Origin: a virus
Taxonomy: Duplodnaviria > Heunggongvirae > Uroviricota > Caudoviricetes
IMG/VR virus record: IMGVR_UViG_2529292759_000004
Direction: 5' to 3' (one strand)
Length of the DNA stretch: 21,500 nt
Shown here: positions 7,133 through 7,177 of the stretch, piece after piece
Position numbering within the stretch: the first letter of the stretch is position 1
Layout: every line of letters begins with the position of its first letter
Notes under the pieces: generated by a model
What the model saw: the letters and a program-made list of their open reading frames with translations, nothing else
What the model was told of the DNA's origin: nothing
Databases searched by the model: none
Translations under genes and position numbers: made by a program

Positions 7133-7177
7133 GGCTTTTCAGCCACGTAGTCGAGAGTCGACGTTGTTTAAAGAGCC
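7133..7177 (-). promoter_or_regulatory. nutL: boxA-like GGCTCTTTAAA plus boxB-like hairpin GGCU-GAAA-AGCC
   Basis: Minus-strand RNA reads ...GGCUCUUUAAACAACG-UCGACUCUCGAC-UACGU-GGCUGAAAAGCC...; same architecture as the nutR candidate at 9813-9858. Confidence 0.55.

Follow-up and report, generated by a model that had tools for sequence, protein, structure and literature searches.

The two stretches at 7132-7177 (minus strand) and 9813-9858 (plus strand) of the window, that is, the whole 21,500 nucleotides of viral DNA analysed, are very probably the N-utilization sites (nutL and nutR) of a lambdoid prophage of the VT2-Sakai/H-19B regulatory type, in which a hairpin within the spacer would serve as a structural 'reducer'. 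The element is already known, since nut sites with exactly these sequences have been annotated and nut sites of the H-19B type are characterised by just such a hairpin, making this a correct but ordinary finding; the nut sites of the phages VT2-Sakai and 933W were annotated about 25 years ago. What is added here is that the hairpin is conserved as a structure (nine different stems with strong covariation), is located exactly between invariant flanks and restores a lambda-like distance between boxA and boxB. A remaining peculiarity of these sites is the boxB loop, a genuine GNRA tetraloop that lacks one C of the GACAA loop of H-19B and is always paired with one class of arginine-rich motif (ARM) in the N protein.

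The window contains a lambdoid immunity region with a sieB-like gene, N, nutL, the leftward promoter pL, a terminator (7445-7466), two accessory genes and then the cI side, where the order continues with cI (8816-9517, minus strand), pR, cro, nutR, tR1, cII, O and P. The positions of promoters, cro and tR1 were transferred from the annotation of VT2-Sakai (Stx2 phage Sakai; GenBank AP000422) over colinear matches of ca. 94-95% identity (ca. 94% in the case of pL), and a simple consensus promoter scan of the window called neither pL nor pR at threshold. The features are the following.

6761-7033, minus strand: N antiterminator gene, 90 aa, with a GGAGG Shine-Dalgarno sequence 5 nt upstream
7034-7131, minus strand: leader of N, downstream of nutL and ahead of the start codon, predicted to fold into a long, imperfect stem (GAUGCAAU...AUUGCAUC plus adjacent pairs)
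7132-7177, minus strand: complete nutL (boxA, spacer with hairpin, boxB), identical to the VT2-Sakai 'putative N-utilization leftward'
7169-7177, minus strand: nutL boxA, GGCUCUUUA
7163-7168, minus strand: nutL 5' flank AACAAC, the 5' counterpart of UACG
7150-7162, minus strand: nutL spacer hairpin ('reducer'), GUCGA-CUC-UCGAC
7146-7149, minus strand: nutL UACG, conserved and single-stranded, between spacer hairpin and boxB
7132-7145, minus strand: nutL boxB, UGGCU-GAAA-AGCCA, with 5 bp in the stem and a tetraloop of the GNRA type
7223-7251, minus strand: pL, TTGATC-17 nt-TACTAT, transferred from the VT2-Sakai 'putative major leftward promoter'
9587-9802, plus strand: cro, transferred from the VT2-Sakai annotation
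9813-9858, plus strand: complete nutR, identical to the VT2-Sakai 'putative N-utilization rightward'
9813-9821, plus strand: nutR boxA, CGCUCUUUG
9829-9840, plus strand: nutR spacer hairpin, GGAC-AUUC-GUCC
9841-9844, plus strand: nutR UACG
9845-9858, plus strand: nutR boxB, UCGCU-GAAA-AGCGA, a 5-bp stem with a GAAA loop
9888-9913, plus strand: tR1 region, the VT2-Sakai 'putative rho dependent terminator for pR transcript', with cII (9944-10240) next

Both sites are found where they belong. nutL (minus strand 7177-7133, GGCUCUUUAAACAACGUCGACUCUCGACUACGUGGCUGAAAAGCC) lies between pL and N, as expected of a nut site, and nutR (plus strand, CGCUCUUUGUAACAACGGACAUUCGUCCUACGUCGCUGAAAAGCGA) starts 10 nt past the cro stop codon, ahead of tR1 and cII. 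The RNA quoted for both sites in a preliminary description, made from the sequence alone, is base for base as described there, as are the N reading frame and its motif GTAASRRRARRANL. The frame GCTCTTT-N(8-38)-GCTGAAAAGC occurs twice in the 21.5-kb window, against an expectation of 0.00 (100 shuffles). A covariance model scored nutL at 63.4 bits (E 4e-21) and nutR at 54.6 bits, with the next match in the window at 5.6 bits; as the model was built from 21 family sites that include these two, the useful outcome is the absence of a third site in the window. No nut or boxB family was recovered by an Rfam scan of positions 6500-10500 with E up to 10, which returned chance hits only. A terminator-like hit on the plus strand at 7150-7162 was rejected, being simply the reverse complement of the nutL spacer hairpin.

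Some neighbouring signals deserve mention in their own right. Upstream of pL, on the leftward strand, there is a strong intrinsic terminator (7445-7466, minus strand; AACCCGGC-CUCAGC-GCCGGGUU followed by a U-run), in the place where VT2-Sakai, 933W and HK620 have an annotated terminator of the pRM/cI operon (tM/tIMM). A perfect 6-bp hairpin (CCGCUU-AAU-AAGCGG, 9795-9809, plus strand) spans the tandem stop codons of cro directly 5' of the nutR boxA; its 5' arm is similar to the start of boxA (CCGCUC), and it is missing from H-19B, whose cro differs. The pL leader (7025-7215, minus strand) has a predicted fold of -68.3 kcal/mol (z = -3.1), and the predicted stem in the N leader, which is kept in phage POCJ13, is reminiscent of the lambda N leader that RNase III processes.

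The rrn boxA differs from the lambda boxA by an extra U that turns it into the consensus site (Prasch et al., 2009; PMC2724277). Measured against the consensus (C/U)GCUCUUUA, our own reading of the description in that paper, the boxA elements of nutL and nutR match at eight of nine positions each, and both contain the extra U. The 5' flank runs on from boxA, a stretch that we take to resemble the E. coli rrn boxA extension GCUCUUUAACAA. The boxB had been described as the hairpin GGCU-GAAA-AGCC and the spacer hairpin as flanked by conserved CAACG and CUACGU. The GAAA-loop hairpin and the conservation of the flanks are confirmed, but the limits of all of them had to be redrawn. The boxB stem has 5 bp (UGGCU/AGCCA, 7145-7132), so that the terminal U of CUACGU is the first base of boxB, and the G of CAACG together with the first C of CUACGU make up the closing pair of the spacer hairpin, leaving CAA(C/U) and UACG as the single-stranded flanks. 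The same layout does recur at nutR with a different spacer hairpin (GGAC-AUUC-GUCC there, GUCGA-CUC-UCGAC at nutL), as had been noticed.

In order to examine the spacer hairpin in a wider set, a pattern scan of IMG/VR was combined with named phages selected via their N protein, giving 38 unique sites of this layout. The scan pattern fixed boxA, the boxB core and TACG, and the invariance of these columns is therefore partly by construction; the unbiased, protein-selected subset consists of H-19B, HK97, 933W, epsilon34, POCJ13 and sal5, and each of these relatives has both flanks, CAA(C/U) and UACG. UACG is also invariant in an alignment of 21 sites, a set partly chosen on that motif. In 37 of the 38 sites there is a perfectly paired stem, 4 bp or longer, that directly abuts UACG. 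There are nine distinct stems (GGAC/GUCC, GUCGA/UCGAC, GGUGA/UCACC, GAUUCG/UGAAUC, GAUUCA/UGAAUC, GGACG/UGUCC, GGUGAA/UUUACC, GAAGAU/AUCUUC and GGCC/GGCC), 4-6 bp long, with loops of 3-6 nt (CUC, ACAC, AUUC, CGGA, UGGAU, GGA, UAU, GUCC and others). When representatives of the nine, all of which have such a stem (9/9), were base-shuffled, only 1.2 of the nine retained one.

Pairing was conserved throughout the 21-site alignment, with 91.9% of the cells paired versus 68.7% in shuffles (none of 500 as high), although the 21 sites are related sequences and this control overstates the significance. Sliding the partners by 1-3 columns brought pairing down to 23-49%. Double-sided changes are found in four of the five pairs of the spacer hairpin and in two of the five boxB pairs. 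In the spacer hairpin, what is kept is the structure and not the sequence (94.3% of its cells are paired), its closing G-C pair being invariant across the 21 sites, and boxB shows covariation at its two outer pairs, the outermost occurring as U-A, C-G or A-U and the other as G-C, C-G or A-U. A candidate three-way covariation between the boxB stem and the first position of boxA, corresponding to an alternative fold, is true in the window, fails in the wider set and was discarded.

Counted from the end of boxA to where boxB starts, the spacer has 22-25 nt; when the hairpin is left out, 8-11 nt remain. Spacers that lack the hairpin measure 7-8 nt in lambda, 11 nt in P22 and 10 nt in the first of two neighbouring sites in an IMG/VR locus (L096), where UACG is kept. 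The effective spacer is thus like that of hairpin-less sites, as the reducer idea predicts.

The collection also yielded some unusual arrangements. In the locus just mentioned (L096, 1410-1510) the hairpin-less site, GCUCUUUCACAGUUUACG-GCGCUGAAAAAGCGC, has a lambda-like GAAAA loop and is directly followed by a GAAA-tetraloop site with a spacer hairpin. In another IMG/VR locus (L098, 1507-1785) a GAAA site is followed ca. 230 nt downstream by a nutL-like site of the H-19B type, with a GACAA loop. Such tandem nut-like sites, which share a strand but differ in boxB type, may reflect mosaic joints or may serve two N specificities. In the Salmonella phage 103203_sal5 (L212), upstream of an N with an H-19B-type ARM (SRARRRERLKAKALANG), the usual spacer hairpin and UACG precede a nutL boxB, GCUCCGUCAACGAGC, with a 4-bp stem containing a C-C mismatch and a GUCAA-like loop, which may have degenerated or may represent another variant in specificity.

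The N protein matches Pfam PF25694 (N_peptide) at full length (E 1.5e-32), falls in PHROG 271 ('anti-termination protein N-like') and is 98.9% identical to the N of VT2-Sakai and 42% identical to that of H-19B; in a search for related loci with the N alignment, all 80 loci among the matches listed were 98-100% identical to the window N. A PDB sequence search with N gave no match, even at E 10. The protein has an ARM near its N-terminus (GTAASRRRARRANLQSQ) and a C-terminus of the P22/H-19B type (CLPNVALYAAGYRKSKQLTAR). The resemblance of the latter to P22, already pointed out in the preliminary description, is borne out by 79% identity to gp24 over the last 24 aa. The statement that the ARM is unlike that of lambda was too strong: in a gap-free alignment of the core AASRRRARRANLQSQ with AQTRRRERRAEKQAQ of lambda N, 9 of 15 residues are identical, and the core is lambda-like but for the equivalent of Trp18, in whose place the window N has Glu26.

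Across 13 N variants the class of ARM follows the class of boxB loop, whatever the rest of the protein, as listed here.

GAAA/GCAA tetraloop: ARM G-x-x-A-x-RRR-[AE]-[RH]-R-x-x-LQ, in the window, POCJ13, epsilon34 and the loci L011, L029, L039, L060, L072, L086 and L111
GACAA pentaloop: ARM SRSRRRERLKAKALANG, in H-19B, HK97 and 933W

The tetraloop class of ARM is present with either type of C-terminus, joined in mosaic proteins to a lambda-type (...KGKSIPLI/V; L011 and L086) or to a P22/H-19B-type C-terminus (...ALYAAGYRKSKQLTAR). The occurrence of one ARM type with two types of C-terminus indicates that the RNA-binding and polymerase-binding modules of N recombine independently.

Comparison with described phages places these sites among those of the VT2-Sakai/H-19B type. 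Inside the nut sites there is no difference from VT2-Sakai, in which promoters, cro, tR1 and cII are arranged as in the window and the flanking DNA is ca. 94-95% identical; the identical stretches annotated there are 41 nt (leftward) and 40 nt (rightward) long, with no sub-structure given. The stretch from N to nutL is 100% identical to the Escherichia phages ev017, ev207 and PhiR57_1 and ca. 94% identical to many Stx phages, and the stretch from cro through nutR to cII behaves in the same way. The 933W record also has annotated nutL and nutR sites with the layout seen here (Plunkett 1999 annotation). The recognition of nut sites that serve the adjacent N and consist of boxA, a spacer with secondary structure and a boxB with a GAAA loop was therefore right, the sites being identical to those annotated in VT2-Sakai and laid out as in 933W and H-19B. 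As for the hairpin regarded as foreign to the textbook lambda nut site, it is indeed absent from lambda and P22, but it is not new, since it corresponds to the spacer dyad symmetry of the H-19B type.

H-19B, 933W and HK97 (Neely & Friedman, 1998, 2000; Plunkett 1999 annotation) share with the window the layout (boxA)-ACAA(C/U)-hairpin-UACG-boxB with a 5-bp boxB stem, and the order boxA-hairpin-UACG-boxB is found in epsilon34 and POCJ13 as well. In H-19B, the phage that served to elucidate this kind of N system, nutL reads ...UAUACAAC(GAUUCG-AAUA-UGAAUC)UACG-GCGCUGACAAAGCGC and nutR reads CGCUAUUUUCACAAU(GGAC-AUUC-GUCC)UACG-UCGCUGACAAAGCGA, the hairpin and UACG of the latter being identical to those of the window nutR. 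Over the stretch from nutR to tR1 the mean column identity among the window, H-19B, HK97 and 933W is 94%, and the single difference within boxB is one C of the loop (GACAA in the H-19B type, GA-AA in the window). The N proteins of these three phages have in common with the window N the N-terminal MxR(R/K)TxFKG, the central HRPTxSR and the C-terminus. Differences are found in the ARM, which in the H-19B type is 2 aa longer in the alignment, in the total length (127 aa for H-19B N and 90 aa for the window N, the middle of which is 37 residues shorter) and in boxA, which is not recognisable in H-19B nutL and reads CGCUAUUU in its nutR, whereas both window sites have a near-consensus boxA. The H-19B specificity goes with a GACAA pentaloop and the ARM SRSRRRERLKAKALANG, while the window has a GAAA loop and the ARM AASRRRARRANLQSQ; judging by these motifs, the window appears to represent a sister specificity subgroup and not the H-19B specificity itself.

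Lambda nutL and nutR share with the window the order boxA-spacer-boxB, a 5-bp boxB stem closed by U-A, a GNRA-like loop and a comparable effective spacer length, and the ARM core of lambda N is of the same type (A-x-x-RRR-x-RRA-x-x-Q-x-Q). They differ in lacking a spacer hairpin and in having pentaloops (GAAGA and GAAAA), and the C-terminus of lambda N is unrelated to that of the window N. In P22, nutL has a consensus boxA (CGCUCUUUA) and gp24 carries the C-terminal RNA-polymerase-binding tail that is common to the window N, but the window differs from P22 in the spacer (11 nt and unstructured in P22), in the loop (a pentaloop, GACAA, in P22) and in the ARM (GNAKTRRHERRRKLAIERD in P22). The spacer hairpin is absent from P22/SEN22 and HK620, in which the C-terminus of N is as in the window.

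These sites are also widespread. The nutL module (7100-7215) was found in 747 of 5,426 complete E. coli genomes (ca. 14%), including O157:H7 strains, Nissle 1917 and the type strain ATCC 11775. In the RefSeq E. coli genomes there is no nut feature under the match to this stretch, only a 'hypothetical protein'.

In their work of 2000, Neely and Friedman reportedly found dyad symmetries in the spacers of the H-19B nut sites which other nut sites lack. Disruption of one arm is said to inactivate the site, compensatory changes to restore it and deletion of the dyad to have little effect, and the stem-loop, which would draw the sequences on either side of it together, was reportedly named a 'reducer'. 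The same authors are said to have described a reduced host-factor requirement for this type of nut, with NusB/S10 and boxA being dispensable. Since the window sites, unlike those of H-19B, have a good boxA, their requirement for host factors may differ. The H-19B nutR/tR1 region has been used in Rho/N experiments, in which RNase probing showed two hairpins in the nutR RNA, protection by N with NusA/NusG extended over the spacer and boxB and left out boxA, and the spacer region was protected by Rho alone too (Muteeb et al., 2012; PMC3526286).

A likely course of events can be outlined for this phage, combining what was computed here (the sequence and positions, the identity to annotated nut sites, the covariation of both helices, the spacer arithmetic and the co-occurrence of ARM class and tetraloop) with N binding to boxB, the use of Nus factors and the role as reducer, which are carried over from work on lambda and H-19B. 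The pL and pR transcripts would carry the nut RNA, and the ARM of the phage's own N would bind the 5-bp GAAA-tetraloop boxB. By analogy, N would then recruit NusA onto the single-stranded spacer, which is where NusA binds in the lambda nut site (PMC2724277), and the near-consensus boxA could take NusB/S10. The hairpin would act as a reducer of distance, its folding taking 12-15 nt off the linear path and joining the flanks (A)ACAA(C/U) and UACG, so that boxA and boxB would come to lie 8-11 nt apart, as in nut sites without a hairpin. The resulting RNA-tethered (looped) complex would make RNA polymerase resistant to tR1, the first terminator that the N-modified enzyme would have to pass on the rightward transcript, and to the leftward terminators.

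A different role for the hairpin, as a specific recognition element instead of a passive shortener (through a shape contact with NusA, a second contact with N or a block to the loading of Rho on an overlapping rut), appears unlikely. The protection of the H-19B nutR spacer by Rho alone and by N with NusA/NusG (PMC3526286) would fit it, as would the invariance of the closing G-C pair and of both flanks. However, stem sequence, stem length, loop length and loop sequence all vary freely, and the natural relative in L096 has dispensed with the hairpin while keeping UACG and a 10-nt spacer. The small effect that deletion of the dyad in H-19B is said to have had in Neely and Friedman's study points in the same direction. 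Even harder to sustain is the view that nutL is coding, either as a 60-aa ORF (7011-7193, minus strand) or as part of a 114-aa N-terminally extended N starting at 7105, with the repeats being incidental. Both ORFs exist, the 114-aa form of N is annotated in a Stx1 phage record and the RefSeq genomes place a 'hypothetical protein' under the searched stretch, but the hairpin loops of phages whose N is 98-100% identical differ by single-nucleotide insertions or deletions (CTC, ACTC, ACAC), which would shift the 60-aa frame, and this reading is accordingly rejected. Moreover, the 114-aa ORF begins downstream of nutL, the variation is compensatory at the level of base pairs and not codon-like, and the element is found again past cro, on the opposite strand. 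We regard the chances of a coding origin as negligible.

Fold prediction, which had been proposed as a check, gave a result that is clear for nutR and qualified for nutL. When the whole boxB stem is taken into account, the two-hairpin fold is the predicted minimum free energy (MFE) structure at seven of the eight sites folded (nutR and six other family sites). In the window nutL it becomes the MFE structure only with boxA held single-stranded (-12.0 versus -14.3 kcal/mol), since a competing fold that pairs the GGCU of boxA with the 3' arm of boxB is better by 2.3 kcal/mol. It could be argued that nutL is a conformational switch in which the first bases of boxA (GGCU) are paired with the AGCC of the boxB 3' arm, masking both elements until some factor resolves the fold. 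Such pairing is indeed the predicted MFE of the window nutL (-14.2 to -14.3 kcal/mol), and at both window sites nucleotides 1-4 of boxA are the same as the 5' arm of boxB minus its outermost base (GGCU in nutL and CGCU in nutR). This match, however, shows no covariation in the wider set (CGCU and GGCU in L011, UGCU and GGCU in L060, AGCU and GGCU in POCJ13), the two-hairpin fold is the MFE at nutR and all the other sites folded, and local hairpins are expected to form first during transcription. A switch thus seems very improbable, and N-utilization sites with the spacer hairpin as reducer are the interpretation that we favour.

The aspect of these sites that could have wider implications is the tetraloop. 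The GAAA/GCAA-tetraloop boxB and the ARM G-x-x-A-x-RRR-[AE]-[RH]-R-x-x-LQ may tentatively be viewed as a distinct N specificity group, orthogonal both to H-19B/P22 (GACAA) and to lambda (GAAAA/GAAGA), a proposal that we consider possible but rather doubtful. With respect to the H-19B type, it would involve a change of one nucleotide per boxB loop and a small change in the ARM; with respect to lambda, it would involve a tetraloop without the extruded base. In lambda boxB, this extruded loop base matters for the formation of the NusA-dependent complex. Searches of the literature and PDB found no biochemical or structural study of a GNRA tetraloop with the matched ARM class, and the pair could be a small question for structural biology. 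The pairing of tetraloop and ARM could also serve synthetic biology as an orthogonal RNA-peptide pair. If true, a distinct specificity group would constitute a natural test of how much of the interface between N, NusA and boxB is required.
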